A DNA stretch of 40,853 bases, from assembly GCA_002784505.1 (NCBI GenBank), contig PFLF01000043.1, forward strand, positions 1 to 40,853. Reading direction: 5' to 3'. This DNA is from Candidatus Roizmanbacteria bacterium CG_4_10_14_0_8_um_filter_39_9. Its GTDB lineage: Bacteria; Patescibacteriota; Microgenomatia; UBA1406; GWC2-37-13. The notes under the pieces are model-generated. The model did no database searches and was not told the DNA's origin. It saw only the letters and a program-made list of their open reading frames with translations. Position numbers and translations under genes: made by a program. This document shows, in pieces, positions 9,590 to 37,390 of this stretch; positions within the stretch are counted from its first letter, which is position 1; each line of letters starts with the position of its first letter.

Positions 9590-10168
9590 ATGCAGACAGA
9601 TATTGTTTCGGTTGTTGGGCAAATTAAAAATGAAACAAACTTCATTACAAAGGCAAAATTACTCCGTTTTTTGGTTGTTGACAAGGGGATTCGTATAAAA
9701 GATATTAGTAGAACGTTGGGAATGAAGGAGTCCTATGTTTGTCATATTCTTCGGTTGAATAAATTGAACGATCTGGTAGTCGATGGGTATTATTCAAAGC
9801 TTATTTCAATAAGTCACCTCTTTATCATTGCCCGCCTTCATACGACAGAGCAGATTGAAAAAGCCTATGAAATGGTGTTAGGAAACTCATTTACCGTTTC
9901 GCAGACTGAAGAACTTATCCGTGAGATGTTGTATCAAACAAAAACGGTTGGCGAACACATGGAAAAAAAAGAGATAGACCTGCTCACTCACGAAATTGAA
10001 ATCGCACACGATGTAAAGGTAAAAGTTGTGCAGACACGGATCAAGACAAAATGTCTTATTGAGATTTCGGGGAGTCTTCAGGATGCAACTCCTAGGCTCA
10101 GATCAATCTTAAAAATACTAGGAGAAACTCAAAAAGTACCCTCGAAGGATGAGGATGTCACTGCGTAG
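9590..10168 (+). CDS. ParB/Spo0J-like DNA-binding protein lacking the N-terminal ParB/Srx (CTPase) domain
   Basis: HTH 'ISRTLGMKESYVCHILRLNKL' compares with ParB 'GKSRSHVANLLRLLxL'. 'SISHLFIIARL' compares with 'GHARALL'. 'FTVSQTEELI' compares with 'SVRxTEXLV'. The C-terminal segment 'VKVKVVQTRIKTKCLIEISGS...LRSILKIL' looks like the dimerisation region. Confidence 0.6.
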   Translation: MQTDIVSVVGQIKNETNFITKAKLLRFLVVDKGIRIKDISRTLGMKESYVCHILRLNKLNDLVVDGYYSKLISISHLFIIARLHTTEQIEKAYEMVLGNSFTVSQTEELIREMLYQTKTVGEHMEKKEIDLLTHEIEIAHDVKVKVVQTRIKTKCLIEISGSLQDATPRLRSILKILGETQKVPSKDEDVTA

Positions 10169-10738
10169 CTTTACGGGAAATGGATTGTTAATGGTTCCCA
10201 CTTTATTTGCGGGAAAATAGCGGTAAAATACATGGCCTATTACACTTGATTCCGGCACCGGCCCAAATTCACGTGAATCAGAGGACCGAGGGCGGTTATC
10301 TCCCATTACAAATATTTCACCCGGAGGCACCTTGGTTGGTTCTCCATTTTTTGAAAACCCGCCTTCCCAAAGGTTTGTTTTGTCGGAAATATATCCTTCA
10401 TCGAGGACAATTCCATTAACTGAAACTACTGAGTCTTTTACCATTACCTCATCACCGGGAAGTCCGATGATTCGTTTAATATACTCAATATCAGGATTTT
10501 TTGGCGACTTAAACACAACCACATCTCCGCGCTCAAATCCACGCATTTTGTAGGTAATTTTACTGGTGAAAATATAATCACCCGAATTAAAAGTTGGATC
10601 CATCGAAGCCCCTTTAACCTGATTTGGCTGCATAATAAAAAGATAGACGACAATAAAAAGGGAACCGATAAAAACGACCGTTTCCAATATATCCATCACA
10701 AACTCAAACATACCCTTCAAAATCCTCATCATATCCAT
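10118..10738 (-). CDS. lepB: Signal peptidase I (bacterial type, LepB)
   Basis: 'VKGASMDPTF' holds the catalytic Ser, 'YIKRIIGLPGD' the Lys box, and 'GDNRPRSSDSREFGPV' is present. The ATG at 10738 is preferred over the track's TTG at 10774, which would overlap a good promoter for tRNA-Val. Confidence 0.85.
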   Translation of the reverse strand: MDMMRILKGMFEFVMDILETVVFIGSLFIVVYLFIMQPNQVKGASMDPTFNSGDYIFTSKITYKMRGFERGDVVVFKSPKNPDIEYIKRIIGLPGDEVMVKDSVVSVNGIVLDEGYISDKTNLWEGGFSKNGEPTKVPPGEIFVMGDNRPRSSDSREFGPVPESSVIGHVFYRYFPANKVGTINNPFPVKLRSDILILRGYFLSFS

Positions 10739-10756
10739 TGATTGTAATGAACAAGG

Positions 10757-10785
10757 TTGCAAAAAACAAGCCAAATCATTACAAT
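10757..10785 (+). promoter_or_regulatory. Candidate promoter for tRNA-Val and the downstream gene
   Basis: TTGCAA (10757-10762), a 17-nt spacer and TACAAT (10780-10785), about 16 nt upstream of the tRNA 5' end. Confidence 0.5.
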
Positions 10786-10801: not shown

Positions 10802-10874
10802 GGACCCGTGGCTCAGTTGGTAGAGCGCTTCATTCACATTGAAGAGGTCACAGGTTCGAGTCCTGTCGGGTCCA
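10802..10874 (+). tRNA. tRNA-Val (anticodon CAC)
   Basis: The cloverleaf folds by hand. Acceptor GGACCCG/CGGGTCC, D stem GCTC/GAGC, anticodon stem CTTCA/TGAAG with loop TTCACAT, and T arm ACAGG-TTCGAGT-CCTGT. The discriminator is A, and CCA is not encoded. Confidence 0.9.
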
Positions 10875-10898
10875 CAAAGGTTTATTAATTTTCGTCTT

Positions 10899-12899
10899 AT
10901 GAAAAAAGGCTTTAGTTGGTTAGTTGTCTTTTTTGCGGTTCTTGCCGTCACCGGCATTGCGGGTGGAGCATATTATCTTGGAACACGAACAAATGCTCCC
11001 AAGGCGGCATCAACCTCCCACAGTCAATCATCTTTGCAATTCACCTCGTTGTCTTCATCGTCACTTCAACAGACGAAAGAACCTCTTTTCACCGGCTCCG
11101 TGAAAAAGATAACTAAGGATTTAGAGCTTTTTAAAATATCAGAAATTGATAAGGAAAACGGAGTACCCGATTCGATCGTATATTATGAAGCAGGAACGTT
11201 TGTACGAGGAGAGTTTAAAGATTATACAAGGATCCTGGCGATTCGCCCGTCTGAAGGACCAGGTCCCAGTATGCAATTTTTGCTTGCAACGAAAGATTAC
11301 CGTACGTATTTACTCGATGATCCGGGAAGTAAAACTGTCAACTACCCCGAGAGTGATTGGGATAATCCCTTCACCTACCTTGATAGAAGCAAAATTTCAA
11401 AAACGGTATCGCTTGATACCGATCACCCAAAAATAATTGAGGTTGAAAAACCATTTGTGCTGATCAGACAGGATTCGATCCTTCTTGAAAACAAAAAATC
11501 CGGGAATAAAGACAAAAATGGGTATGATGTCTATCTTGAGTCCCCGATAACTGCTTTTGCTAAGTCTGATATTGTTCCCTCAAACCAGACACAGCTAACT
11601 CTTTACATCGGAGGAACTGACTGGGGGAGCGGTGAAGGCTATGGCGATAAAGAAAAAAAAGATCTTGCCATCCGAAAAACATATTTAAGTAAAACTACGT
11701 ACTTGCACGGAGCCGATTCGACGGGGCTTTCATATTCCTATGTCCTTTCAACAAAAAGTGATGTTGACGCTTACTTGGCAAAAGCTGCGACTGCAGAACA
11801 GGAAGTGATTGCGTATAAAAAACAGATCGCTCTGTACAATGAAAAAAAATTATCCGAATATCCGAAGTCTCCCGATTATATAACATTCCCCGGCATGCGT
11901 CTTGACAACTCAACAACAGCAATCCCGGCAGATTTTTACGCAACCTATGACTCGGCATTTCCCGGAGCATGTGGTGGGGGTCAAAGCACTTTTCTTGTTG
12001 ATCTCATCAAAGACTCAGATCTTCAGGCAGTGTCTTCTTCCTCAGATTACCCGCTTTTTATTTTGAAAGACACAAAACATCCTCTGTATGAATTGGCATA
12101 TCGTGTGAAAACGGAACAAGGCGAAGAATCGTTTAAGGGAGTAAATGACGGGAAATCCATTCCGACATTTGAGGCCTACGTTGCAGATCACCCGCTGGTC
12201 TTTTTCAAGGATGCATGGGGGAGGTGGGGTGTAATGGGTGAATATGATTTCAAACTTATGGGTGGATGCGGGAAACCTGTAATTTATCTTTATCCTGAAA
12301 AGGAAACGAATGTTCACCTGTCATTTGCAGCGCCCTTTTCTTTAAACACTCAAATCCCCAGTTACCATGATGGGTGGTTTGTAAATGCAAAACCGAACGG
12401 AACTTTAACCGACCTTCAGTCGAAATATACGGACTGTTCGAAGATTGATGAAACAATATTTGGTTCTGAATATGCAGGAGCCGCATGTAAATCAAACTCC
12501 TATCCATACATCTACTGGTCAGGAAAAAGTGTTGAGAATCAATATCCGAAGGTGGGCGGAGGATGGATGGTTGAAAAAGAAAATCTTGGAGTGTTTATGA
12601 AAGCTAAGTTGAATGAAATGGGGCTGAATGAAAAAGAATCAAACGATATGACTTCCTATTGGGTTCCAAAGATGAGTGAAAAAAACGCCCCCTATTATCG
12701 AATAAGCTTTTTGCAAACTCAGGCAATGAATAAATTTATCCCGATGGATGTTAATCCAAAGCCGGACTCAGTAATCCGTGTATTTCTTGACTTTAAAGCG
12801 CTTGAGGTCAAGCCTTCAGTGATTCCCGTACCTCAGACGTTGCAAAGGTTTGTCCGCAATGGATTTACGTTGGTTGAATGGGGCGGGTTGATTGAGTAA
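10899..12899 (+). CDS. Hypothetical large exported or membrane-anchored protein
   Basis: The ATG at 10899 lies downstream of the tRNA; the track's start at 10839 lies inside the tRNA. There is an N-terminal TM 'FSWLVVFFAVLAVTGIAGGAYYL' and a Ser-rich linker. The C-terminal region 'GGCGKPVIYLYPEKETNVHLSF...' belongs to no family I can name. Confidence 0.6.
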   Translation: MKKGFSWLVVFFAVLAVTGIAGGAYYLGTRTNAPKAASTSHSQSSLQFTSLSSSSLQQTKEPLFTGSVKKITKDLELFKISEIDKENGVPDSIVYYEAGTFVRGEFKDYTRILAIRPSEGPGPSMQFLLATKDYRTYLLDDPGSKTVNYPESDWDNPFTYLDRSKISKTVSLDTDHPKIIEVEKPFVLIRQDSILLENKKSGNKDKNGYDVYLESPITAFAKSDIVPSNQTQLTLYIGGTDWGSGEGYGDKEKKDLAIRKTYLSKTTYLHGADSTGLSYSYVLSTKSDVDAYLAKAATAEQEVIAYKKQIALYNEKKLSEYPKSPDYITFPGMRLDNSTTAIPADFYATYDSAFPGACGGGQSTFLVDLIKDSDLQAVSSSSDYPLFILKDTKHPLYELAYRVKTEQGEESFKGVNDGKSIPTFEAYVADHPLVFFKDAWGRWGVMGEYDFKLMGGCGKPVIYLYPEKETNVHLSFAAPFSLNTQIPSYHDGWFVNAKPNGTLTDLQSKYTDCSKIDETIFGSEYAGAACKSNSYPYIYWSGKSVENQYPKVGGGWMVEKENLGVFMKAKLNEMGLNEKESNDMTSYWVPKMSEKNAPYYRISFLQTQAMNKFIPMDVNPKPDSVIRVFLDFKALEVKPSVIPVPQTLQRFVRNGFTLVEWGGLIE

Positions 12900-12903
12900 G
12901 AGT

Positions 12904-12942
12904 TTAACACTTCCGAAATGATTAACAGTTCGGAAGTGTTAA
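12904..12942. repeat. 39-nt REP-like palindromic element (copy L), 3' flank of the RAYT gene
   Basis: TTAACACTTCCGAA-ATGATTAACAG-TTCGGAAGTGTTAA forms a perfect 14-bp stem. It lies 4 nt after the stop of the 10899-12899 gene and encodes the last residues and stop of the transposase. Confidence 0.8.
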
Positions 12943-13572
12943 AGATTCAAGATAATTTTTGTACAATTCATTTTTTCCCTTGCAAAATTTACTGTTTATT
13001 ATAGTTTCTGTTTCTATTTTATATGGATTATTTTTACCCATATACGCATTAATGGATGAAAAGCGATATGAATATATTCCATTAATCTTTTTGATGAGGC
13101 CGGAGGTATATGGATTTACATGAATATAGCGTGATACAAAGAGTAATTGTTCTTCTGATCGTATTCTTTTTGCTTTAAATTGGGTTAGAAAAACGGGGCC
13201 CTTTCGATCATGAATAGTATTGTACAGTCGAGTAATAGATATGAGCGTTTTGATCATTGTATCTTCAATGCCGTTTGGATGTAGTTGTCGAACTAATAAA
13301 TGATAATGATTTGGCATAAGACAGTACGCAAGAATTTGAATGCGGAATGACCCTTCATCAACAACTTTTTTCATGATTTGGTCGGCTATTCCATACCTGC
13401 AACTTTTCAGATACGAATACCTCATCGTGCTCTTTAGCGATCGGTAATATGTTAGAGTATTAATGAATCTGGTTGAGATAGTGTCGTTTGAAAATATTCG
13501 TATAGATTCAACGGTTTTGTCATAAACATGATATATGTTTCCATCACTGAATGGAATAAATCTCTTTGGCAT
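12922..13572 (-). CDS. IS200-like / REP-associated HUH tyrosine transposase (RAYT-like, Y1 family)
   Basis: The HUH motif is 'CLMPNHYHLLV' and the catalytic Tyr motif is 'SRYIHVNPYTSGL' (YIHxNP). The gene is bracketed by two copies of the same 39-nt palindromic element. Confidence 0.8.
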   Translation of the reverse strand: MPKRFIPFSDGNIYHVYDKTVESIRIFSNDTISTRFINTLTYYRSLKSTMRYSYLKSCRYGIADQIMKKVVDEGSFRIQILAYCLMPNHYHLLVRQLHPNGIEDTMIKTLISITRLYNTIHDRKGPVFLTQFKAKRIRSEEQLLFVSRYIHVNPYTSGLIKKINGIYSYRFSSINAYMGKNNPYKIETETIINSKFCKGKNELYKNYLESLTLPNC

Positions 13573-13756: not shown

Positions 13757-14968
13757 TTATTGTTGAGATTGTTGTTGAAGAGACCTTATCCGAAGTAACA
13801 TGATGGTGACTATTATCAGAGCGTCGGTAAGAATAAAATACCTGCCGAATACAGACATTGTATTTGGAAATAGCAGATATGAATAGGTAAGGCATTTGTT
13901 CATCAGTCTAAAGATGAGAAACGATAAAGCAGCAATCAAAGCTCCTCCTAATTTTGGAGCCTTTTTACTCATATCTTTTACAAAGCGGAAATAGTACAAA
14001 GCTGCAAAAAGTCCCTCACCCAGAAGTATCTGCCACCAGATAAGATTACATGTGATTGATGCGCCTTCTACTTGACCGGTAGATGATGAGGATGAGGAAG
14101 AACCGCCTGATAGAGTAGGCGTGGTTTCTGTTGAAACTCCCTCAACCTGTCCTCCTGTGAAAGGAGCAAAAAATCGGGAGGTGGCTCCTAAAACACTTCC
14201 AGAGCTTGATGAGGATGATGATGAAGAAGTACTACAGCTTGAGGCATTGATAGTCACACTCTTTGACGGATACCCATTCTCAGGCTCCGCCTTTACCGTA
14301 TCGTCTCCGGTATGGGTATACCCGACCTGCGCTTTTCCATTTGAACCGGTTACCGCTTCCTTAACTTCTCCTTTATAAGTAAATTTGACATTGATGCCGG
14401 ACTGAACGACCCCATCATATTTTAACTCCATAATGGCATCAAAGTCCGAGTTAGTACAAGAAGTGGAAAGAGACGACGTCTTGCCGGTCAACGGAGATAT
14501 AAAGCTCATTGTTAGATCAAATTGGGTAGAAGTATTTTGATACTCATTTCCAGCGTCAGTGTCCATGGTTAATGCAAATGCAAATGTCTCACTTGACCCA
14601 TTACCCAAACTGGATAATAACTCAGTTTCTCCATTGGTATAAAATGCGCTCAATAAGCCGGTCCATGCTGTTGTACTGTCAGATCTGGTAATGACAAGAT
14701 TCATCACTTGATCCAGACCACCTGTTGTTGTTTCGCCAGATGTATCTGCGCCGATTTTTTGGCTTGAACCACTCGTATTGGTAATTTGAATTGTCTTTGT
14801 TAACGTTTTACCCGGATACCATACTTCGGATGAGGAGAAAAAATGGGTGATTGTTGAAGGAGTACAACCTGAGTCGGTACAGCTTATATTATCATCTGCG
14901 GCAAAGGCAGTTTGAGTTAGAAACAGTACCCCTAGTCCGATAAGCACTGTTAAAAAAATCCTTTTCAT
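13757..14968 (-). CDS. Secreted TasA/camelysin-fold domain protein with an Ig-like/CarboxypepD_reg-like domain, Ser-rich linker and C-terminal multi-TM anchor
   Basis: The signal peptide is '...LTQTAFA/ADD'. 'VWYPGKTLTKTIQITNTSG', 'LDQVMNLVI' and 'DAGNEYQNTSTQFDLTMSF' resemble the TasA/Peptidase_M73 pattern. There are poly-Ser tracts, and hydrophobic helices follow 'ITCNLIWWQILLG'. The start lies 1 nt after the upstream stop. Confidence 0.6.
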   Translation of the reverse strand: MKRIFLTVLIGLGVLFLTQTAFAADDNISCTDSGCTPSTITHFFSSSEVWYPGKTLTKTIQITNTSGSSQKIGADTSGETTTGGLDQVMNLVITRSDSTTAWTGLLSAFYTNGETELLSSLGNGSSETFAFALTMDTDAGNEYQNTSTQFDLTMSFISPLTGKTSSLSTSCTNSDFDAIMELKYDGVVQSGINVKFTYKGEVKEAVTGSNGKAQVGYTHTGDDTVKAEPENGYPSKSVTINASSCSTSSSSSSSSSGSVLGATSRFFAPFTGGQVEGVSTETTPTLSGGSSSSSSSTGQVEGASITCNLIWWQILLGEGLFAALYYFRFVKDMSKKAPKLGGALIAALSFLIFRLMNKCLTYSYLLFPNTMSVFGRYFILTDALIIVTIMLLRIRSLQQQSQQ

Positions 14969-14969
14969 A

Positions 14970-17900
14970 TTATAAGTTTTCCTCCAAAGTTATTTTCACT
15001 CCATCTTTGTCCGTCAAAATAATAATCAATTTAACATTTTTTACATCAGTATCGTAGGTGCAGACTTCACCCGAACAGGTGGCTAGGTCAAGATCAGTCT
15101 TTTCATACTTATCAAGCGAAGAAATATCAACATCCGATCCTACCAGTCCTTTTGCGATGCTGAATGCGTCATAACTTAATTCATATGAGAGTTTGTCATA
15201 GTCGGCGATATTTTGTACGGAGAATGATACCGTTTTTCTATCATCTGCCAAGGTAAGAGTTGCCTCAGGCGTTGCACTAACGGTGGGAGTTGGCCTTACA
15301 GAAGTTGTCAGGTGGGCCAATGGTTCGTTTTCCGAACGGTTTTCAGTCCGGGGAGTTCCCCTTACGTCAGATCCAACGGTGCCCGTGGTAAAAAACTCTG
15401 TGCGCGATGCACTGTCAATACATGAGTACCAGTTTAAAGGATCCATTCCGATTCCCGGCACCGATGTCCGCTCCATCGAATAATATTTAAGATCGATTGC
15501 ATCATATAAACCTTCACCCTCTCCAGTTGAAAGGTCGTAAGTGTAGTCCCATGCCGTATCAAGCACATTGCTTAATGGATCAGTCAGCTGTAGTTGTAAA
15601 TGTCCGGCTGCAAGAGCAACCGACGTGGTCACCAGATCTGCGGTTACGGATGATTTTAATTGACTGCCCGCAGTTCCAGGAGCATAATTTGTGATAAGGA
15701 AATAGCTGTGAGGAGCTACGGAGGAAGAAGGAAGGGTAACCATATCTGCATAGGTTGTACCATTATATTTCTGGATTTTAAAGCCGGATAAATCTATAGT
15801 CCTATCAGTCATATTGCGAAGTTCGATCCATTCGTCGGCAGTTGAAACACTTGTTCCCATCCACATGAGTTCGTTGATAACAATATCGCCAGCTGTCACG
15901 CTTGTTAAAGGTGCAAGCGCGGTTGTCGTCCCTGTAGTTGTATCAATTCCTGACCAGTTCGGCGCTTCATCTGCCGCACGGATTGCAAAGTAATAGGCGG
16001 TTGAAGGATTAAGTCCTAGGATTTCTACTGACTCATTCAAGCCCGCTTCTTGCGGAACCGGTATCTTGCCTGCAGATGTTGCGGAATTAAAATTGTCTTC
16101 GGTTATGATAGGGGAGGTAGAATACCGGATATCGTACTTCGCCGCTCGTCCTGAAGAACCGTTGTTACCAGGGGAGGTCCAAGTAAGGGTTGCCGTGTTT
16201 ATGCGAATCTCAGCAACTCCAAGATCATTTATTGTCGCAGGAGCTTGATTATCAGTGATGACCTGGACACGGTAGATGGAGCTATTGTTTCCCGCATTAT
16301 CAACTGCGTAGTATTCGACCCAATGATCCCCATGTTCTGTAACTTGGAATGTCGAGGAAGTTTGCTGCCACGATTCCCCCCCAATGCGATATTCATAATG
16401 GTTTATACCGGAAAGCGCATCACTTCCGACGAGAGTATATGTTGCATGTCCTGGGGCAGATACAAAATATGTGGTTATCGCATCTACGTATGCCCAAGAT
16501 TGAAGGGTATTATCAGTAGTATTACCCGCATAAATTGCAAGATTAAGTTTGTCACTATTTGCATAATCACTCAGGTCATAAGAAAACTGCTGCCAACCGG
16601 TATTTCGCGCAACTCCAAAATCTGCCGTACTGAGAACCGATGGATCCGTCTTGAATATTTCCTGGCCGTTTAGCCGGATAAAAAACCCGGGATCGTCAAA
16701 TGCATTATCATAGGAGGCATAGTTATAATGAAGCGACAGACCCTTAGCTCCTCCTGATACTGATTGCATGAGTCTATTTTCCCAAACTTTATTTCCTTCA
16801 TCTGAAGGATAGGCATAATTACCGATACGCGCCATAGACGATGAACCATCATATGGATTAATCACTAAGTCTGTCTCTGGAAATGGTTGGGTAATGATAT
16901 CCCCCGTTGTAATTGCCACATCTCCAGCTGTTGTCCACCCGGTTAATCCGCTTTCCAAACCTCCGTTTGTAAATTTCTCTTCAACGGCTTTTGTATATGA
17001 GCCCTCAATTGAAAGGGAGAGGGATGATGGGGCTACTTGATCAAGAGTGAGTCCGCAGCTATTAGATATAACGCTCTCATTGCCAGCTTTATCAACCGCT
17101 ATGATTGTATATGAATATGGATTATTACCAGGCGTCATGTTTCCAAAATATTGAGTAGTTGGATGATAAACCTTGGCATGTTTGGTATTGGATTTAGTAC
17201 CAAACCAATAATAGTCTATATTTGGATCTGTACTCGGATACCACTCGATTGTTATATGGGTATCATTGGTAAAACCGCCGCAGCCGACCTCAGTCCATGT
17301 AGATGAATTATGGCCTTTATAAATTGTTTTTACTTGCGGTTTTAAAGGCTTGGTGCTGTCAAGGGTCAGTTTCCAGACTTCACTCCACGCACTTCTGTTG
17401 CCGACTGTGTCTATTGCCTGTACCCGCCACCAAAATATGCCATCAGGTGCGCCGCTTGCATTTTTAACTATCCGCTCTTCACCACCTATTGTTTGTTTAT
17501 TTGCGATGGTATAGGTTGCGGTATAACGCACTTGGCCGGCAGGGCAGATTTGACCTGCATACAATTGTGGATCAACTCCGCAACTTTCATAATAATACGT
17601 AACAGGATTTGACCCGTGTTCATCTACTACATATTGCCAAGTTTGTTGTAACCCAGCGCTATTCATGATGGTATTATTTGCCGGGGAGCGAAGTAAAGGT
17701 ACAGGAGGCGGGACAAAGTCTTTAGCTGAAATGCTTATACCGGATGCATCAATGTTTTTTAACCATAAAGCATTAATTGTCTTGTATGAAAAAATACTCA
17801 GAGGTAAGAAAAGAAAAATAAGAATCCCAACAACAGTGTGCGGCGTTTTTATTGGTTTATTTTCTTCACTGCGTTTTTTGCGCATCTCTTCGAGTATGCC

Positions 17901-18416
17901 TACGACTAGTTGAAAAGCAAATATAAAAATAAGGACAATGGAGGGAATGCCGATAATCAATAAAAATCCAAGAGGTTTTTTTACCTCAGTCAGAGCATAA
18001 CCTAAATAGGGGATAGACGTTATATACTTTCCTTTTATCGCACCCGGCACTACTTCCCACACATCCTTTGATGAATTTGCATCTCCCTTAGTAATGAAAA
18101 AAGGCACAGCCCTATTACCCAATACAGTTGGCTTAATATTGACCATACGGTGGATGATCACCTGACTTTTATTACCTGGGTTTTCAAAAGCAATAATATC
18201 ACCTTTTTTTAAATCAGAGTAAGGTGCATTCTGAACAAATGCAACTGATCCAATTTGGATGTTAGGCTTCATTGATCCGGTTATGACGACAAACGGTTGG
18301 ATCTTATATCTGGTTGGAAGTATGGGGGCTGCAACAAGAAGACACAGTGCTAGGATAACTATGCACACGATCCATTCGGCTATATTAATTATTTTCTTAA
18401 ATATTGTCATACACAA
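14970..18416 (-). CDS. SipW/archaeal-type signal peptidase I fused to a large FN3- and lamin-tail-domain ectodomain
   Basis: The N-terminal ~180 aa contain a TM, 'VITGSMKPNIQIGS' (Ser), 'VIIHRMV' (His), 'FITKGDANSSKD' and 'IPYLGY', then a second TM. A basic loop, a third TM and about 930 aa follow. That region includes an FN3 ('LTWTSPGNNG...YDIRYS...YYFAIRA') and an LTD ('IVINELMWMG...DEWIELRN..IDLSGFKI'). Confidence 0.8.
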   Translation of the reverse strand: MCMTIFKKIINIAEWIVCIVILALCLLVAAPILPTRYKIQPFVVITGSMKPNIQIGSVAFVQNAPYSDLKKGDIIAFENPGNKSQVIIHRMVNIKPTVLGNRAVPFFITKGDANSSKDVWEVVPGAIKGKYITSIPYLGYALTEVKKPLGFLLIIGIPSIVLIFIFAFQLVVGILEEMRKKRSEENKPIKTPHTVVGILIFLFLPLSIFSYKTINALWLKNIDASGISISAKDFVPPPVPLLRSPANNTIMNSAGLQQTWQYVVDEHGSNPVTYYYESCGVDPQLYAGQICPAGQVRYTATYTIANKQTIGGEERIVKNASGAPDGIFWWRVQAIDTVGNRSAWSEVWKLTLDSTKPLKPQVKTIYKGHNSSTWTEVGCGGFTNDTHITIEWYPSTDPNIDYYWFGTKSNTKHAKVYHPTTQYFGNMTPGNNPYSYTIIAVDKAGNESVISNSCGLTLDQVAPSSLSLSIEGSYTKAVEEKFTNGGLESGLTGWTTAGDVAITTGDIITQPFPETDLVINPYDGSSSMARIGNYAYPSDEGNKVWENRLMQSVSGGAKGLSLHYNYASYDNAFDDPGFFIRLNGQEIFKTDPSVLSTADFGVARNTGWQQFSYDLSDYANSDKLNLAIYAGNTTDNTLQSWAYVDAITTYFVSAPGHATYTLVGSDALSGINHYEYRIGGESWQQTSSTFQVTEHGDHWVEYYAVDNAGNNSSIYRVQVITDNQAPATINDLGVAEIRINTATLTWTSPGNNGSSGRAAKYDIRYSTSPIITEDNFNSATSAGKIPVPQEAGLNESVEILGLNPSTAYYFAIRAADEAPNWSGIDTTTGTTTALAPLTSVTAGDIVINELMWMGTSVSTADEWIELRNMTDRTIDLSGFKIQKYNGTTYADMVTLPSSSVAPHSYFLITNYAPGTAGSQLKSSVTADLVTTSVALAAGHLQLQLTDPLSNVLDTAWDYTYDLSTGEGEGLYDAIDLKYYSMERTSVPGIGMDPLNWYSCIDSASRTEFFTTGTVGSDVRGTPRTENRSENEPLAHLTTSVRPTPTVSATPEATLTLADDRKTVSFSVQNIADYDKLSYELSYDAFSIAKGLVGSDVDISSLDKYEKTDLDLATCSGEVCTYDTDVKNVKLIIILTDKDGVKITLEENL

Positions 18417-18467
18417 GTAAATACGAAACCATTTATCAGTTAACTTTCTTTTCTATTAAACGCTCAT

Positions 18468-18496
18468 CTAACATCATGGTTAACTCATGATGTTAG
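18468..18496 (-). terminator. Intercistronic hairpin between the TasA-like gene and the peptidase gene (candidate attenuator or partial terminator)
   Basis: CTAACATCATG-GTTAACT-CATGATGTTAG has a perfect 11-bp stem and a 7-nt loop, 24 nt downstream of the TasA-like stop. No clean U-tract follows. Confidence 0.4.
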
Positions 18497-18519
18497 TGAA
18501 TGCTTAATCAAGTCAAAAA

Positions 18520-19086
18520 TTACATTTGTGTTCCAGTGAGCAACCAAGTTGAGTACGTGCTTGTGCCAGCCAAAGCTTGTGGAAAGCTTGCGTCTGTGTT
18601 CAAACACATGTACATCGTCTTATCTGCTCCTTTTGCGATTGTTACATTAGTTGGGGTAGATACGGCTATCCAAGTGCCAATCTTCTCATTTGCACTGCTA
18701 GGTGCCCATCCTGATTCGCCAAACTTAACATACGTGGTATTAGCCATTTCAGTTGAATTCCACCATGTTGTATTACTCATACTTGTGAGCTGTGCATCAA
18801 TAGCCAAAGTAATATCTGCAGAACTTGAGTTACGCAGATAGACCGGGATATAAGAAGTACAGGTAGTATTGTAATTTGGCATTATGTTTGAAAACGTTGT
18901 TATGGCGCTAAAATTTGCCGTTGACCCATATGATGTGCCGTCAGTTGATACTAATAGTCCGATAGTACCCGCATCTATTCTAATGTTTTGAGCCGTGGCA
19001 GTCGTTGTCCAAAGAGCATATGCTCCTGATCCTAATGCCGCCAATACCACTACTAATGCGATTGTTGATACGATTATCTTTTTCAT
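18520..19086 (-). CDS. TasA/camelysin-like small secreted protein with a SipW-cognate-type signal peptide (candidate fibre major subunit)
   Basis: 'MKKIIVSTIALVVVLAALGSGAYALWTTTATAQNIRIDAGTIGL' parallels TasA 'GGGTWAAFND..FASGTLDL'. The C-terminus 'AGTSTYSTWLLTGTQ' resembles the family's terminal motif. The SD GAGGGGAGGTGAAAA is very strong. Confidence 0.7.
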   Translation of the reverse strand: MKKIIVSTIALVVVLAALGSGAYALWTTTATAQNIRIDAGTIGLLVSTDGTSYGSTANFSAITTFSNIMPNYNTTCTSYIPVYLRNSSSADITLAIDAQLTSMSNTTWWNSTEMANTTYVKFGESGWAPSSANEKIGTWIAVSTPTNVTIAKGADKTMYMCLNTDASFPQALAGTSTYSTWLLTGTQM

Positions 19087-19151
19087 TTATTTTTTCACCT
19101 CCCCTCAAAATTGTTTGCATAAATTTTTAACGAGTTGAAAGCCATACTAAA

Positions 19152-19189
19152 ATCCAGCCCTTACCTCTTGCGAGATTTATTGGCTGGAT
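19152..19189 (-). terminator. Stem / internal loop / GNRA-capped stem followed by U4 (terminator of the upstream gene or a structured leader of the TasA-like gene)
   Basis: The minus strand reads ATCCAGCC-AATAAAT-CTC-GCAA-GAG-GTAAG-GGCTGGAT-TTTT. The element lies 133 nt after the 882-aa gene's stop and 66 nt before the TasA-like start. Confidence 0.35.
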
Positions 19190-19321
19190 GGTTGCACACA
19201 GAGCTCTATGTACATAAATTATGCAAATGCTACAGACTTTCGTAGTAGTTTTTACAGACATATATAACCTTGTTATGATACCCCAAACAACTAGTATATT
19301 TTTACTAAATATATTCATTAT

Positions 19322-21970
19322 TTACATATTTCTCACATCTTTTTGAATCTTTTGAATTGATTTTATATATATTTCAGCTTGTGTATATTTTTTTTGAGTC
19401 ATCGCATCTTCTGCAAGTTGTGTCCGCTTTTCAATTTCAATGAGTTGAAGAGCATTTTTTTGTACTGCTTTTCCGCGGCCTTTCATTTGTAACAAATAAT
19501 TTTGTAGAGGAGAAATGAGTTTCTTTGAGACGGCGATACTTTTGCTTAGCCTTGATGGGACAATCCCAAAATTATAGTTTTCTAATACTTTTCCATATAC
19601 TTCTTCCAGTTTTTCTATTGCATAAAATATTTTTGCCTTCTCGTTTATATTTGATTTTTGATATGCGAGAAACAGTTGCTGATGGGTAAGTAGGAGTGAG
19701 GATTTAAGTCTGCCCTTATTTTGGACTGAGTAAAATTGTTTTGCAAATTTGATATTGCTTATTGATTTTGCTATATCGGTTTTTTTTAGTGTTTTATTTA
19801 TATCCGTCAAATATAGAGCAAGCTCATCAAATAGAGCAGGCGTTGCAGATAGGGGAAAGGAAGGCATTTGAGAGTTGGATTCGATTTGGTATGTGTCAAT
19901 TTGATTAGTCGGAGGATCCTGGGTGATCTCTCCTTCAATCCGATTCCACATATCTTTATTTGACCCTAACTGCCCAATAAAAATGGTATATCTCCCTTTT
20001 TCCTGTCCGATTACTCTCAGTAGGTAATTACCGGACTGAGCATTTTCGATAAATAATTGTCCCTCATTTTCATCATATGTTTTGTTGTCATGAACGACCT
20101 GAAGTTTTGCAGGAGACAACATAAGAAAAATAAGGGATGGACTGATTTGAGTTTTATTACTCTCAGCGACGTCAGGTTCTGCGAAAGATATATTTGCAGC
20201 TTGCAAAATTGCTTTAATTCCCCGAACGGTGTACATTAGTTCACCATGATTGAGATTCGTAAAGATTGGGTTGTTGCCGATCGCTGCAGAACTATTTATG
20301 ACTAAATTATCACCATTCGTTGTTAATCTTTCGGTCGGTCTTCCATCAACATATATATCCAACAGTCGATCCATTACAGATCTATTTGACAATTTGTAAC
20401 CACTCAGCGTGTCAATTGAGTCACCCGCTATGGTTTGCAATGAAGCAAGTGTTTGAGAATTGGGAATTTGATACAAAAGGGGTAATGAATTTTGCATGAA
20501 AAGTGAGGAGTTGGCAATAATGGTGCCATCTCTCATTAAGTAATTTTGAAGCGGCAAAAGATTTTGAGCAATTGGGAAGTAACTATTTATTATTTGTTTA
20601 TCTGAATCAATTCCGTTTCGGTAAAGTTGCAGTATCATTTTCTGGCCCAACCATTCAAATGTGTCGCCTGTTTCGATTTCCCCTGCCTCTACCGGCTTAT
20701 AGGCAAAAGCCGTTCCTCCATGCGGAGCACCGACGGTTAAAACTTTATTAATTTGTGAGGGTCCGTATTTTTGAAGATATATGCGGCTGATAAACCCTCC
20801 CAGAGAGTGGCCGATGAGAATCGGTTTCTGAGTATATTGCTTGTTTTGGATATAAGAATATAATTCATCTGCCGTTTTTTCAGCCGACTGTCTCCAGTCA
20901 TAGTTAAAGAAACGATAGTCAGTATTTTTCACATATCCAAGATTATTTAATGTCTGTTCAATTCCCTTATACTCGTTTACCATCGGATTCATGCTCCATT
21001 GAGATTGGGCGACTTGAGCATTATGAAAGAGCGCCTCCTTATTCCAAGAGGCAAACATACCGGGGATAAGAATAAGGGGATGCTTTGGAAGTGGCGTAGG
21101 AGTTGGAGTGGGGAGAGGATTTAAGGATATTGCAAGATTCAATTTCCAGTCGCCAGAGGGAGTTCCGTAATAAAGCATTAGCTCATTATCTTTTTGAAAG
21201 ACAAAAGGAAAGTATGAAGAGGACATAATCGTGGTACGGTTTATCCACTGGGAAGTACAGGAAAGGGGAGCATGAGTTTCAACATATTCAATTCCCCGCG
21301 GCGAGTGGAAAAATAAATAGTATGAAACCCCATCTTTTATGAAGGACTTCGGAACCGAATCTTGATCGAGAAAATAATTGCCACATTTACTAAAATTGAC
21401 TCCATCAGAAGAAGTGGCTAAACCCGTTTTCCAGTTACCGTTTAATGCGGTATAAAACAGAAAATACGTTTTATTTTCAAAATATATGGTGGGTGATGAA
21501 ACCCCATCTCTCTCCCAACTTAGCTCCGGAAGCAAAATCGTCCGCAATGTTGAAGCATCAAAATCAACGCCGTTTGATGACTCGATTTTCATTATTCTTG
21601 TGTGCTCACCCGAGGGAGTTGTTGCGAAGTACAACAGATATGTTTCACCTACTCTATACATTGAAGGATCATGAATATCCTGACCATTTAGGAAATCAAA
21701 TAATTTAGCTCCTTGCCAATGGATGCCATCACTCGATGTTGCATAGGCGATTCGAAGTCCCGCCCCTACCGAGGTGTACCACATTTTATATTCTCCATTT
21801 TCAAAAATGATTGATGATTGCATTACTCCTGTTTCATTCCAACCTGAGTAGTTTGATACAACGCTCAAAGGGTTGGAAGAATCGGGAACAAACGATTCAA
21901 ATGCATGAATAAACTGCGTATTTAAATGAAAAATAGTAAGAAGGATTAAAATACTGAATATTTTTTTCAT
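19322..21970 (-). CDS. Secreted fusion protein: beta-propeller (GH43/GH130-like fold) + LCAT/PGAP1-like alpha/beta hydrolase (lipase/acyltransferase) + helical C-terminal region
   Basis: There is a signal peptide. Repeated 'W..tg......F.....Y.m.Y' and 'ATSSDG..W/F' blades are followed by a 'PTPTPTPLP' linker. Then come 'LILIPGMFASWN', 'FNYDWRQS' (the LCAT-family YDWR motif) and 'ILIGHSLGGFISR' (GxSxG). Confidence 0.65.
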   Translation of the reverse strand: MKKIFSILILLTIFHLNTQFIHAFESFVPDSSNPLSVVSNYSGWNETGVMQSSIIFENGEYKMWYTSVGAGLRIAYATSSDGIHWQGAKLFDFLNGQDIHDPSMYRVGETYLLYFATTPSGEHTRIMKIESSNGVDFDASTLRTILLPELSWERDGVSSPTIYFENKTYFLFYTALNGNWKTGLATSSDGVNFSKCGNYFLDQDSVPKSFIKDGVSYYLFFHSPRGIEYVETHAPLSCTSQWINRTTIMSSSYFPFVFQKDNELMLYYGTPSGDWKLNLAISLNPLPTPTPTPLPKHPLILIPGMFASWNKEALFHNAQVAQSQWSMNPMVNEYKGIEQTLNNLGYVKNTDYRFFNYDWRQSAEKTADELYSYIQNKQYTQKPILIGHSLGGFISRIYLQKYGPSQINKVLTVGAPHGGTAFAYKPVEAGEIETGDTFEWLGQKMILQLYRNGIDSDKQIINSYFPIAQNLLPLQNYLMRDGTIIANSSLFMQNSLPLLYQIPNSQTLASLQTIAGDSIDTLSGYKLSNRSVMDRLLDIYVDGRPTERLTTNGDNLVINSSAAIGNNPIFTNLNHGELMYTVRGIKAILQAANISFAEPDVAESNKTQISPSLIFLMLSPAKLQVVHDNKTYDENEGQLFIENAQSGNYLLRVIGQEKGRYTIFIGQLGSNKDMWNRIEGEITQDPPTNQIDTYQIESNSQMPSFPLSATPALFDELALYLTDINKTLKKTDIAKSISNIKFAKQFYSVQNKGRLKSSLLLTHQQLFLAYQKSNINEKAKIFYAIEKLEEVYGKVLENYNFGIVPSRLSKSIAVSKKLISPLQNYLLQMKGRGKAVQKNALQLIEIEKRTQLAEDAMTQKKYTQAEIYIKSIQKIQKDVRNM

Positions 21971-22028: not shown

Positions 22029-22985
22029 CTATTTTTTCTTGATATAAAGCTCCAGGATAGACCCATGGTAGTGTAGGTTTAGCAGGCGATAAAAAAGCGG
22101 GGCAATACATCTGTCAAATAGTAGATATTTTATTAGGCGCAAGGAAGAATAACTGACTTTTTTAGCCTCATCGGGCCTACCCGAATGCCCCAATTCTAAC
22201 CGCGTAGGTTGGAATTGGACTGGTACAACGGTTCGATAGGCATGTGAGTTTCCTGATTTAAATATGGCTTTAATTATCCCCATAAGATGTTCCGGGTAGC
22301 TATATGTTGACACTTTGTCTATTTGACATCTCGGCGGAGTAATAGTCTTAATTGTTTTTTTAGAAAAAATCCACAAATGATCAGGTGGAGTGAGGAAGGT
22401 ATAATTGTTTTGCTCAGCCTTATATAAATGACTGTCCAAATTGGGTGTCTCAATATATAAAATACCATCTGGGGACAATAATTTACATGCGTCCTTCATC
22501 AATTTTTTTGGATTTGAAACATGTTCGATCACATGAATGAATGTAATAAAATCGTATTTTATATTTTGATGACTCTTTGCATATATTTCAAAACTTGTTT
22601 TATACAATTTTTTGATTGATTTATAAATGGGAACATTATAAAAAGAGCCTGAAGGTTCAACTGCAGAAACGTTAAGGCCAATATCAAGGGCTTCATTGGC
22701 AAAATATCCGTATCCCGACCCAACATCCAACAAGCTAGTCCCTGATGGATTGATACTTTTTAGATTTAGGAGAATTTTTTTTGCACGCGCCCTGATAGGA
22801 GTTTCATTCGTTTTTCCTGCAAAATAATCAAAACTACTTTTATAATACTTATCAATCTGCGTTTTTGATGGTTGAGGATATAAAAAAAGAAGATTACATG
22901 GAACACATCGGTAATATTTATATTGATCAACTTGATTTGCAATTACCGAACTGCAACGACACAGTGGACAAGATGTTTTGGGCAT
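22029..22985 (-). CDS. Class I SAM-dependent methyltransferase with an N-terminal Zn-ribbon
   Basis: The ribbon is 'CPLCRCS...YYRCVPCNLLF'. SAM motif I is 'LLDVGSGYGYFA', and 'FDFITFIHVIEHV' is present. Confidence 0.8.
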   Translation of the reverse strand: MPKTSCPLCRCSSVIANQVDQYKYYRCVPCNLLFLYPQPSKTQIDKYYKSSFDYFAGKTNETPIRARAKKILLNLKSINPSGTSLLDVGSGYGYFANEALDIGLNVSAVEPSGSFYNVPIYKSIKKLYKTSFEIYAKSHQNIKYDFITFIHVIEHVSNPKKLMKDACKLLSPDGILYIETPNLDSHLYKAEQNNYTFLTPPDHLWIFSKKTIKTITPPRCQIDKVSTYSYPEHLMGIIKAIFKSGNSHAYRTVVPVQFQPTRLELGHSGRPDEAKKVSYSSLRLIKYLLFDRCIAPLFYRLLNLHYHGSILELYIKKK

Positions 22986-23029
22986 GTGAAATTATGAGGC
23001 GCATAGTTGATGATAGGCAACCGCTTCTG

Positions 23030-23038
23030 TGCTACAAT
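23030..23038 (+). promoter_or_regulatory. Extended -10 promoter element (TGcTACAAT)
   Basis: TGTGCTACAAT is identical to the 11-mer upstream of the ParB-like gene. It lies in the divergent intergenic region upstream of the + strand methyltransferase genes. Confidence 0.35.
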
Positions 23039-23142
23039 TAGGAGAGTTCGGAGGTTTGGAATAATGTAATTATTGCGAATAACCTTTTCTATGAAATGCG
23101 TTCTCTATTGAGAATCATAAGTGGTTCTTTACCCCCCCATCA

Positions 23143-23388
23143 ATGAAAACTTTGCTTCTAAAAACAGGATATACCATTGAAATACTATCAACTCATGAAG
23201 ATTTTATTGACTTCAAAAAAAATCTTGATGGGAACTGGGGGAGAATTGGAAGCAGTGTTATCCGCAAGATGCTGAAGAGCATATATTTGGTTTGTTTTAC
23301 TCCGTTATACTTCTTCTTTAGAGGTATACTGTGGAATCAGGGCAAGGAAGACTTATTATTTGTTATTGCGCGCAAAATGAATGAATAA
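23143..23388 (+). pseudogene. Stand-alone C-terminal fragment of a class I methyltransferase (remnant of a tandem paralogue; may still be translated)
   Basis: The 81-aa ORF is colinear with the C-terminus of the next gene. 'LLLKTGYTIEILST' matches 'LFALLTSNGFRILNIS', and 'GKEDLLFVIARKM' matches 'GSGEAVLVIAIKL'. No SAM-binding part lies upstream, where an in-frame stop sits at 23092. The ORF overlaps the next start (ATGAATGAATAA). Confidence 0.4.
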
Positions 23389-24211
23389 ATTATTCTCTTC
23401 AAACTGTGTTTGCTCAGTTGTAAAACAACAATTTATTCCGACTATAATATATAGAAACGAAACAGTTTTTAAAAACTATAATGGTCTTGTAATCGCAAAG
23501 TGTCAACATTGCGGGATGCTTAAAACATTCTCAAGTAACAATAAGATAAAAGTTACGCCCGAAATAAGTGAAGTTGAGCACTATGAGGAAAACCGTCAGG
23601 ACTTTCAAAATAGTTTTGAAGAGCTAGTAAACAGGGTCAAGGTGTATATAAAATCTGGATCAGTTCTTGAAGTTGGGGCATCATCGGGGAATTTGATGCG
23701 CGTGTTTCAAGTTCAAGGATTTGACGTCTCTGGCATTGAGCCAAACAGACCGGCATTTAATGTATTGACAAAACAATTTGGCCAACGCGCTTATTACGGA
23801 TATCTAAAAGATTTCATTATCAAAAACAAAGTACAATTTGACCTAGTTATTTACAATCATGTGTTGGAGCATGTTGAAAATCCAAATAATGAGCTTAATC
23901 TTATAAAACAGGTGTTGAAAAAAGGCGGCCTGTTAATTGTGGGAGTACCGAACTGTGACAACATTGTTTTTAAAGTTCGAAGAAAATTCTGGGAATCACT
24001 ATTACCCAATCAACACATCTGGCACTTTTCAACAAAACATCTTTTTGCCTTGCTTACATCGAATGGTTTCAGAATTCTTAACATCAGCTACAACAATCAT
24101 AAACGCAAAGACTATCCCTTAATCAAGAAAATATATTTTTGGTTTCTTGTGGGATTTAATCGTCTGAAAGGCTCAGGAGAGGCGGTACTTGTTATAGCTA
24201 TAAAACTATAG
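23381..24211 (+). CDS. Class I SAM-dependent methyltransferase with an N-terminal Cys4 ribbon
   Basis: The ribbon is 'CVCS...CQHCGMLKT'. Motif I is 'VLEVGASSGNLM', and 'FDLVIYNHVLEHV' is present. Confidence 0.8.
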   Translation: MNKLFSSNCVCSVVKQQFIPTIIYRNETVFKNYNGLVIAKCQHCGMLKTFSSNNKIKVTPEISEVEHYEENRQDFQNSFEELVNRVKVYIKSGSVLEVGASSGNLMRVFQVQGFDVSGIEPNRPAFNVLTKQFGQRAYYGYLKDFIIKNKVQFDLVIYNHVLEHVENPNNELNLIKQVLKKGGLLIVGVPNCDNIVFKVRRKFWESLLPNQHIWHFSTKHLFALLTSNGFRILNISYNNHKRKDYPLIKKIYFWFLVGFNRLKGSGEAVLVIAIKL

Positions 24212-24217
24212 ATTTAT

Positions 24218-24256
24218 TTATCAGTTCGGAACTGATAAACATCTCGGAGGTGATAA
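24218..24256. repeat. 39-nt REP-like element (copy 3) between convergent genes
   Basis: TTATCAGTTCGGAA-CTGATAAACAT-CTCGGAGGTGATAA has the same 39-nt architecture as 12904 and 13681. Its first 23 nt with one flanking T form a perfect palindrome (TTTATCAG TTCGGAA CTGATAAA), so it can act as a bidirectional terminator. Confidence 0.75.
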
Positions 24257-24262
24257 GAAAAT

Positions 24263-25579: not shown

Positions 25580-25619
25580 TTTGGCCCATTATAGCAGATA
25601 TAATTATTATAATGATTAT

Positions 25620-26393
25620 ATGAAATCACTCTCCCTTCTCATGATTACAAAAAATTCAGGCGAACTAATAGACAGCTCCTTAAAGTCTGTTTTGGGACTG
25701 ATTGACGAGATTGTAATCGTTGATGACTATTCATCTGACAATACGCGAGCAATTGCAAAAAAATATAAGGCAATGATTTATAAAAGAAGTAGTGAGAATT
25801 TGGGAAAACAGCGCGCCTACGGATTATCTAAATGTAAAGGTGAATGGATATTGATGCTGGATGCTGATGAAATAATTTCTCAAGAATTAAAGAATGAAAT
25901 TATTTCTGTCGTCTGTCGTCAGTTATCAGTCGTCGGAAACATAAGCGGTTACTACATTCCCTATCAAAATCATTTTTTGGGTAAACCGATTAATTATGGG
26001 GGCGAAAATTATCGGATACTTCGTCTATTTAAAAGAGCCAGCACACACATAACTGAGAATGTAGTACACGAACATGTTATTGTGAACGGAAAAGTAGGGT
26101 TTTTAACCCATAAAATATTCCATTATTCATACCGCAATCTGTCTCAGACTTATAAAAAATTTGCAGATTATGCGCGTCGTGAAGCATATCGAAAATTGTC
26201 TCAAGGAGAAAGGACCTCATTCAAAAAATTAATCCTCTATCCTATTCACATGTTCTGGGCAAGATATGTCAAAGATCGCGGATTCAAGGATTATGGACTG
26301 CGGATTTTACTCGATATTGGATTTGCGTATATGGAGTTTTTAATCTACTTTTTGATGCTGTTTGACCTGAAGAAATATAAAAAATCCGATTAA
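25620..26393 (+). CDS. Family 2 glycosyltransferase
   Basis: 'LSLLMITKNSGELI', 'IVIVDDYSSDNT', 'MLDADE' and 'VHEHV...HYSY' resemble the KdtX/WaaE-like GT2 layout. The protein is a paralogue of 32841-33635. The ATG at 25620 is preferred over the track's TTG at 25581. Confidence 0.85.
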   Translation: MKSLSLLMITKNSGELIDSSLKSVLGLIDEIVIVDDYSSDNTRAIAKKYKAMIYKRSSENLGKQRAYGLSKCKGEWILMLDADEIISQELKNEIISVVCRQLSVVGNISGYYIPYQNHFLGKPINYGGENYRILRLFKRASTHITENVVHEHVIVNGKVGFLTHKIFHYSYRNLSQTYKKFADYARREAYRKLSQGERTSFKKLILYPIHMFWARYVKDRGFKDYGLRILLDIGFAYMEFLIYFLMLFDLKKYKKSD

Positions 26394-28634: not shown

Positions 28635-28662
28635 ATTTTATATAATTAGAGCACACAAATCA

Positions 28663-33635: not shown

Positions 33636-33648
33636 ACAATCATAATCT

Positions 33649-36796: not shown

Positions 36797-36813
36797 AAGG
36801 TAAGTATATCAAA

Positions 36814-37389: not shown

Positions 37390-37390
37390 A

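Follow-up and report, generated by a model that had tools for sequence, protein, structure and literature searches.

Evidence for a TasA/SipW-class operon with a peptidase–substrate fusion in a Roizmanbacteria-like bacterium

Most surface structures of bacteria of the candidate phyla radiation (CPR), organisms believed to live on host cells, are poorly understood. On contig PFLF01000043.1 of Candidatus Roizmanbacteria bacterium CG_4_10_14_0_8_um_filter_39_9, a 40,853-nt stretch of DNA that we analysed whole and call the window, three co-directional open reading frames (ORFs) lie on the minus strand at 18520–19086 (188 aa), 14970–18416 (1148 aa) and 13757–14968 (403 aa), with a gap of 1 nt between the last two. 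Do these genes encode an extracellular filament and, if so, how would it be assembled and held on the cell? An earlier note on this DNA had given the same coordinates and the same 1-nt gap, all of which we recovered, and had read the genes as a major subunit, a dedicated peptidase and an anchor.

Here we establish the homology and fold of the encoded proteins, the catalytic residues of the peptidase, the relation between its fused and split forms, the co-variation of a shared strand motif and the synteny of the operon. The locus is very probably a TasA/SipW-class system in a CPR bacterium (Roizmanbacteria-like, Microgenomatia). We favour, with less confidence, the reading that this system builds a donor-strand fibre organised into tip, shaft and anchor, and we put forward only tentatively the further step to a complete cell-anchored, tip-first, peptidase-gated TasA-class pilus.

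A divergent TasA-fold subunit

The first gene (18520–19086; all operon features are on the minus strand) encodes a 188-aa protein that we assign as a TasA-fold major subunit from its ORF, family, profile, AlphaFold2 (AF2) model and Foldseek matches. A hydrophobic segment at its start is a predicted signal peptide (residues 1–24; 19015–19086), with cleavage expected at AYA↓LW, and is followed by a predicted N-terminal donor strand and linker (residues 25–43, LWTTTATAQNIRIDAGTIG; 18958–19014) that has no regular secondary structure in the AF2 monomer model. A word-indexed homologue search found two close relatives only, and an exhaustive profile search was needed: HMMER with a three-sequence profile returned 91 subunit-family representatives, all 170–230 aa long and mostly matched over their full length. 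In the 89-sequence alignment of this family the most conserved positions are A24, P70, N86, G185 and Q187. A24, the predicted −1 position of the cleavage site, is nearly invariant, and P70, N86 and the C-terminal G/Q sit in the PG, NxS/G and TQ motifs of the alignment to TasA. P70 apparently corresponds to the ‘proline box’, which forms a conserved protomer interface according to Roske et al. (PMC10151520).

Several lines of evidence make the connection of the 188-aa protein to TasA solid. First, there are intermediates: the protein matches its positional orthologue in Roizmanbacteria RIFOXYB2 over the full length (E = 6e-21), and in another Roizmanbacteria metagenome-assembled genome (MAG), locus L005, the subunit slot holds two paralogues, one of which matches PF12389 along its whole length (64 bits). 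Second, 33 of the 89 aligned family members individually match PF12389 at E ≤ 0.01. Third, the four best hits of the family profile among PDB sequences are AbpX (9sj2, E 4e-4; 9rhp, E 3e-3) and TasA (5of1 and 8aur, E ~0.025), and the profile aligns the motif region of the subunit with the TasA chain residues KSKDATFASGTLDL, in agreement with the TasA-colinear leader that the earlier note had described. The motif, A↓(L/Y)(W/F)..(T/S).T..G..(I/F)..G, is colinear with TasA and with canonical CPR camelysins, and no NCBIfam signal-peptide model matches it. Fourth, the AF2 model built on the 89-sequence alignment (predicted local distance difference test (pLDDT) 91.4, predicted template modelling score (pTM) 0.77) was compared with PDB structures by Foldseek, a check that the earlier note had proposed; its sole hit with E < 0.001 was the TasA fibre 8aur_A (E = 6.4e-4, probability 1.0, TMq 0.47), and the runners-up were donor-strand filament subunits, namely the Sulfolobus thread, CS20, Fim, Csu and cannulae.

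The link of the 188-aa protein to PF12389 is transitive and structural, without a direct family match: it falls below the PF12389 gathering threshold, giving no match, and its L003 orthologue reaches only 12 bits. In phmmer searches against PDB sequences the 188-aa and 403-aa proteins gave chance matches only. These absent direct matches, together with the original description of PF12389 as a protease family and the fact that we infer rather than observe polymerisation of the 188-aa protein, leave room for TasA/SipW homologues that do not polymerise, with a peptidase that matures monomeric surface or secreted proteins such as coat proteins, camelysin-like enzymes or a large adhesin. We consider this unlikely. 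The model most resembles TasA in its fibre form and, after that, further donor-strand pilins, and a metalloprotease or zinc-protease site is improbable because the 188-aa protein contains no histidine at all.

We give far less weight still to membership of another known Gram-positive or CPR pilus class, either sortase-assembled pili or Pam donor-strand pili, which we regard as highly improbable. It would fit the sortase and LPXTG protein found immediately upstream of the operon in L003 and L007, and the Pam pilins reported in Microgenomatia including Roizmanbacteria. Neither a sortase gene nor an LPXTG motif is present in the operon or in the whole window, and, where Pam pilins have two domains, the subunit consists of one TasA-fold domain that matches TasA best in structure. 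We rejected sortase-pilus membership on the missing sortase and on the subunit C terminus, LLTGTQM, and Pam-pilus membership on architecture, the comparison with PamA/B being by description only.

In the mature subunit Ser and Thr make up 30% of the residues, and there are 7 N-x-S/T sequons where 3.5 ± 1.5 are expected (54 of 2000 shuffles); glycosylation of a fibre made from it would be possible.

A SipW-type peptidase joined to a second substrate

The second gene (14970–18416) has a TTG start, with an ATG two codons further downstream, and opens with a SipW/archaeal-type signal peptidase I module (residues 1–185; 17862–18416) made up of a first transmembrane segment (TM1), the catalytic domain and a second segment (TM2). 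The module scores 92.7 bits against TIGR02228, above the curated cut-off of 51.85, and 33 bits against Peptidase_S26, which bears out the peptidase call of the earlier note. The motifs on which that call had rested (GSMKP Ser, IIHRM His and TKGDAN) fall at columns Ser48 (GSM), His89 (HR) and Asp112 (TKGD), which are invariant across ten peptidase modules from independent loci. The Bacillus SipW equivalog NF046067 gives 77.3 bits, under its 190-bit cut-off, and by these profile scores the module is of the same class as SipW but is not its orthologue. Because the window also encodes a separate, normal LepB-type S26 peptidase (10118–10774, 167 bits), we take the SipW-type enzyme to be additional and dedicated.

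Three hydrophobic segments occur in the 1148-aa protein, the first two flanking the peptidase domain and the third (TM3) spanning residues 191–214. The basic linker EEMRKKRSEENKPIK precedes TM3, and the two together (residues 186–216; 17769–17861) would place a cytoplasmic linker ahead of an internal signal peptide with predicted cleavage at INA↓LW. Directly behind it lies a second, TapA-like copy of the strand motif (residues 217–234, LWLKNIDASGISISAKDF; 17715–17768), and INA↓LWLKNIDASGISISAKDF resembles AYA↓LWTTTATAQNIRIDAGT of the subunit. The remainder of the chain (residues 235–1148; 14970–17714) is a large ectodomain and putative tip or adhesin, in which Pfam and NCBIfam matches mark Ig-like repeats, an OmpL47-type barrel (657–719), an fn3 domain (731–817), a lamin-tail domain (841–951) and a C-terminal domain.

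In six other loci (L005, L007, L010, L015, L016 and L017) one gene encodes the peptidase by itself (181–231 aa) and another the large protein, which has an N-terminal signal peptide and the strand motif; in L005, for example, the large protein reads ITNS↓YLSDNESSSGNTLQA and the subunit TRA↓YFSDTETSTGNTFAA. Read against these split forms, gene 2 encodes a peptidase fused to a second predicted secreted substrate, a surface protein of ~930 aa with its own signal peptide. The earlier division into subunit, peptidase and TasA-fold protein is retained as far as these parts go, and the count of three modules gives way to four modules in three genes. A 260-aa query covering the peptidase and the junction returned mostly stand-alone peptidases of 160–230 aa from CPR bacteria and Firmicutes, a result that does not gauge how frequent the fusion is.

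At every locus the strand motif follows the internal or N-terminal signal peptide of the large protein, and it co-varies with the motif of the subunit. Over 14 positions in seven loci, two of them mutually related, and in a register picked by eye, the summed identity between subunit and large-protein motifs is 49 versus 25.7 ± 5.4 when shuffled, and only the true pairing of 5040 reaches 49. If the proteins did not polymerise, the shared N-terminal motif would be merely a peptidase recognition signal, and its position directly after the cleavage site would suit a recognition determinant; we return below to the distribution of donors and acceptors, which favours strand exchange.

With a mature N terminus, at the predicted cleavage site, that resembles the donor strand of the subunit, residues 217–1148 would be TapA-like in this respect. 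No TapA/YqxM model is among the Pfam or NCBIfam matches of the large protein, and the subunit-family hidden Markov model (HMM) detected no TasA-like acceptor domain in the large protein of the window. In L016 (6977–8542) the large protein matches the subunit HMM, and in L015 (688–3621) it reads ...FSAGSIDFSL...MKPGDSETK after the motif. These two proteins seem to carry a full TasA-like domain behind the strand motif, and the tip protein may be both donor and acceptor in some lineages.

Conserved gene order in CPR genomes

The GC content is 36–44%. Homologues come from MAGs of Candidatus Roizmanbacteria, Collierbacteria and the ‘Patescibacteria group’, and the left-hand portion of the window (FtsA, FtsZ, IleRS, FtsW, ParB and LepB) is syntenic with these genomes; the guess that the source is CPR-like was right. 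Using HMMs from alignments made in this analysis, we found the same order at every locus with enough sequence: one or two copies of the subunit gene, the SipW-type peptidase (fused or separate), the large protein and an anchor-type protein. These loci are the window with L001/L002; L003/4/8; L005/6/12; L007; L009; L010; L015; L016 (Collierbacteria); and L017. Two more loci, reached by way of distant subunit relatives, have the identical architecture, including the fusion and the internal motif, and this removes the concern that ascertainment through the anchor had produced the order. About ten independent CPR loci thus keep it, and the synteny sought in relatives extends far beyond close kin. 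The anchor gene is always last, with a 1-nt gap to the large-protein gene or an overlap with it.

Four contigs that carry anchor-family genes (L010, L011, L013 and L015) are titled ‘uncultured Gammaproteobacteria bacterium’, and L010 and L015 hold further parts of the CPR-type operon. The labels on these four third-party annotation (TPA) assemblies are probably wrong.

A predicted membrane-anchored TasA-fold protein lacking the strand motif

The third gene encodes a 403-aa protein that begins with an ordinary Sec signal peptide (14900–14968; TAFA↓ADD), in which A23 and A24 are invariant in the 16-sequence alignment of its family. A TasA-fold domain without a donor strand (residues 24–158; 14495–14899) follows, assigned from hhalign, the subunit HMM and a β-rich AF2 model. 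Next come a second β-sandwich (residues 160–245; 14234–14491), for which AF2 places strands at 163–240 and which is an fn3 domain in many relatives, and a Ser-rich disordered linker (residues 249–306; 14051–14224; pLDDT <50). The C-terminal membrane anchor (residues 312–402; 13757–14050) comprises three AF2 helices at 312–329, 336–356 and 378–402; a hydrophobicity scan finds the last of them, and a conserved CxxWW motif (C307, W311, W312) marks this end of the protein.

With hhalign, the N-terminal domain of the anchor aligns to the subunit family with 98% probability (E = 2e-13, 153 columns), and the subunit HMM matches the mature domains of anchor-family proteins with E values of 1e-6 to 5e-13; the TasA-like domain that the earlier note had placed in the third gene is supported in this way, by a transitive link. 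The alignment gaps out the post-signal strand motif of the subunit, by which we take the 403-aa family to be without it, and every family member has the AxA↓AD signal and none the strand motif. Invariant features of the N-terminal domain are the Cys30/Cys35 pair, WYPG and GNxYQ (GNEYQ here), and WYPG matches the camelysin ‘proline box’ interface (PMC10151520). The full-length anchor profile, searched against the PDB, retrieved fn3 domains only, owing to the middle domain of the relatives.

A membrane-anchored TasA-like protein of this kind probably holds the fibre on the cell. Fibres might instead be released as extracellular matrix, as in Bacillus biofilms, with the 403-aa protein acting as an assembly chaperone or export factor. 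B. subtilis fibres do form matrix, and TapA nucleates rather than stably anchors them (PMC10151520); in the CPR protein, the N-terminal domain profile has no independent TasA match. We nevertheless judge matrix release improbable: the 403-aa family invariably combines a TasA-fold domain with an extended spacer and with membrane helices conserved at the C terminus, its gene is always last and translationally coupled to that of the large protein, and the protein specifically lacks the donor strand, as a terminal acceptor needs. We retain cell attachment through the 403-aa protein in what follows.

Expression signals at the subunit gene

A Shine–Dalgarno (SD) sequence, GGAGGTGA (19095–19102), lies 8 nt before the ATG of the subunit gene and matches the anti-SD over 8 nt. 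This is the longest such match among the 32 ORFs of at least 120 aa in the window, where the runner-up has 5 nt and most have none, so that the earlier claim of the strongest SD in the window stands; the subunit SD is kept in 7 of the 7 loci compared. Just after the stop codon of the subunit gene is a stem-loop (18455–18508; −28.5 kcal/mol, z = −6.8) that is a probable attenuator or mRNA stabiliser. Stem-loops occur at the equivalent place in L001, L002, L009, L005 and L007, and those of the last three have unrelated sequences (z −4.8 to −6.5). The exceptional SD and the stem-loop after the gene fit, and are typical of, a structural subunit that outnumbers the products of the downstream genes, and in this they speak against monomeric proteins matured by the peptidase and in favour of a fibre.

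An SD of at least 5 nt occurs in only 2 of the 32 ORFs, those of the subunit and the anchor, and translation initiation in the source genome appears largely SD-independent. Across seven loci the 5′ leader showed no consensus RNA structure. The leader of the window (19087–19321) keeps a GTTAAnAATTT box and has a stem, CCAGCC/GGCTGG, at 19154–19187, which reads CCAACC/GGTTGG in L002 and L005, an apparently compensatory change. L001, L002 and L005 have a coiled-coil ORF of 73–87 aa (MITDADVKKLK...YRDMIEDHE) that is missing from the window; a 63-aa ORF at 19127–19318 was rejected as a gene, being unrelated to the ORF at this position in the relatives.

A proposed assembly pathway

The distribution of strand motif and TasA-like domain suggests that the large protein is a donor-only tip, the 188-aa protein a shaft subunit that is both donor and acceptor, and the 403-aa protein an acceptor-only anchor. 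From this split among three proteins a polar fibre is predicted. The split would be hard to explain without strand exchange, which again disfavours the idea that the motif serves the peptidase alone and argues for a donor-strand fibre.

In the pathway we propose, the probably highly translated 188-aa subunit would lose its putative SipW-type signal peptide by cleavage at AYA↓LW and thereby expose its N-terminal donor strand; because the strand starts at the cleavage site, the dedicated peptidase would free it at the membrane surface. Cleavage of the large protein at INA↓LW would leave a strand motif without an acceptor, making it a TapA-like nucleator and the distal tip or adhesin. The strand of the tip would complement the first subunit, each subunit strand freed by the peptidase would insert into the next subunit, and the last would be captured by the 403-aa anchor, an acceptor-only terminator that fastens the fibre to the membrane. 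More tentatively, growth would proceed from the base with the tip leading, and each cleavage would supply one donor strand. Fusion of peptidase and nucleator would co-localise the enzyme with initiation, and the topology would be compatible, with TM2 ending in the cytoplasm, a basic linker and TM3 re-exporting the chain. Of these elements, we infer the cleavage sites, polymerisation, polarity and anchoring.

Several results weigh against this reading. Searched against Pfam and NCBIfam at E ≤ 10, the 188-aa protein has no Peptidase_M73 or SipW-cognate match and the 403-aa protein nothing relevant, and the profile searches that the earlier note had proposed for both thus came back negative for both models. 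The E values linking the subunit family profile to PDB chains are modest (4e-4 to 0.026), as is the TM-score of the AF2 subunit model to 8aur, at only 0.47. Within the window itself, the subunit and tip motifs are identical at 5 of 14 positions. For the anchor, the N-terminal domain profile retrieves no chain of the TasA class from the PDB, and Foldseek with the whole 403-aa model returns only uninformative GH2-type jelly-roll and Ig tandems with TM ~0.2. In addition, the disulfide-linked N-terminal hairpin of the anchor could self-complement its groove.

Genomic context

Genes upstream of the operon vary among loci, unlike the order within it. In the window, L001, L002 and L005 the gene directly upstream encodes a secreted hydrolase, here an 882-aa protein (19322–21970, minus strand) with a GH43/GH130-like β-propeller region and an LCAT/PGAP1-type lipase domain; L003 and L007 have an LPXTG protein of ~1100 aa and a sortase in its place. 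Just upstream of the operon in the window, at 22029–34818, is also a large glycan-assembly cluster with two methyltransferases, DUF2142, GT2 and GT4 glycosyltransferases, YfhO, a Wzx-type flippase and a Wzy_C/O-antigen-ligase-like protein, and the upstream region of L005 likewise contains DUF2142 and methyltransferases. Further along, at 35603–38284 on the minus strand, three α/β-hydrolase genes stand in succession, two of them Ser_hydrolase PF06821 and one DUF1749/Hydrolase_4.

On the other side, an IS200/Y1-type gene, similar to REP-associated tyrosine transposases (12922–13572, minus strand), lies between the operon and a gene for a 686-aa protein (10839–12899, plus strand) that matched no Pfam or NCBIfam family. 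The pair occurs in L002 as well and is missing from L003, L005 and L007; in L005 and L007 the LepB-ParB-L27-L21 block begins within one or two genes after the anchor gene. The pair looks like an insertion. The TTG listed as the start of the 686-aa ORF falls within a tRNA gene (10802–10874, plus strand, 73.6 bits), and translation of this ORF probably begins at the internal MKKGFSWL.

Comparison with known systems

TasA homologues in CPR bacteria are already known: according to Wang et al. 2022 (PMC9245690), Patescibacteria are one of the phyla in which PF12389 homologues are easily recognised, and the remark of the earlier note, that to its author's knowledge no TasA-type fibre had been characterised in such organisms, overstated the gap. 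The new part is the operon variant, with its fusion and its donor-less paralogue. Our literature search found no description of this operon architecture, of a peptidase–substrate fusion or of a membrane-anchored donor-less TasA-fold paralogue. Both the subunit and the anchor family are invisible to Pfam and NCBIfam, an annotation gap that leaves ~90 subunit clusters (at 50% identity) without usable annotation. A TasA-class fibre, if this is what the operon makes, would place a second donor-strand filament beside Pam pili in the lineage and, as the earlier note had suggested for an episymbiont, might serve in host attachment. The complete cell-anchored pilus, if real, would constitute a chaperone-free and sortase-free pilus pathway in monoderm CPR bacteria, and could reveal the way in which cells hold on to TasA-type fibres. 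The division of donor and acceptor roles and the fusion yield testable predictions on the nucleation, polarity and anchoring of TasA-type fibres.

The closest system is the tapA-sipW-tasA operon of Bacillus, or sipW-calY in B. cereus. Both operons encode a subunit of the TasA/camelysin fold, which in the CPR locus opens with a putative SipW-type signal peptide and a predicted N-terminal strand. Both also include a dedicated signal peptidase of the ER/archaeal Ser/His type and, in the manner of TapA, an accessory secreted protein whose mature N terminus would mimic the donor strand of the subunit. In Bacillus, the TasA donor strand comprises residues 28–38, the mature N terminus directly after the SipW cleavage site (PMC9674648), and TapA has a TasA-like N terminus that supplies the first strand (PMC9674648; PMC10151520). 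Unlike in Bacillus, the CPR subunit is too divergent for PF12389 and its gene leads the operon, the peptidase forms an in-frame fusion with a TapA-like multidomain substrate of ~930 aa that is unrelated to TapA, and the locus adds a membrane-anchored TasA-fold protein without a donor strand. We know of no Bacillus counterpart to this last protein.

Next closest are the archaeal bundling pili, AbpA/AbpB of Pyrobaculum and AbpX of Pyrodictium. Their subunits are TasA-superfamily jelly rolls that polymerise by donor-strand complementation, a larger accessory protein adjoins the pilin, and AbpX is the best PDB profile hit of the CPR family. The archaeal operon has no dedicated signal peptidase (PMC9245690) and, in contrast to the CPR locus, no membrane-anchored acceptor-only paralogue has been described for it; these pili also belong to another domain of life.

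Among CPR bacteria themselves, the Pam donor-strand pilus has been solved in Ca. Mycosynbacter amalyticus; its pilins are two-domain Ig-fold proteins of 38–55 kDa that rely on PapD-like membrane chaperones and have no dedicated peptidase (bioRxiv 10.64898/2026.03.03.709456). The proposed fibre would resemble it as a donor-strand surface filament made in CPR bacteria without an outer-membrane usher, and in the proposed logic of tip, shaft and membrane-anchored terminator. Pam differs in donating an internal linker strand, in its PapD/FimC-like chaperones and general Sec processing, and in having no TasA fold. The type V pili of Bacteroidia offer an analogy only: their fold is unrelated, their lipoprotein precursors are processed by Rgp/Kgp-type arginine proteases and their envelope is diderm, yet there too the proteolytic loss of an N-terminal segment is what permits strand exchange, and the pilus ends in an anchor subunit tethered to membrane or lipid.

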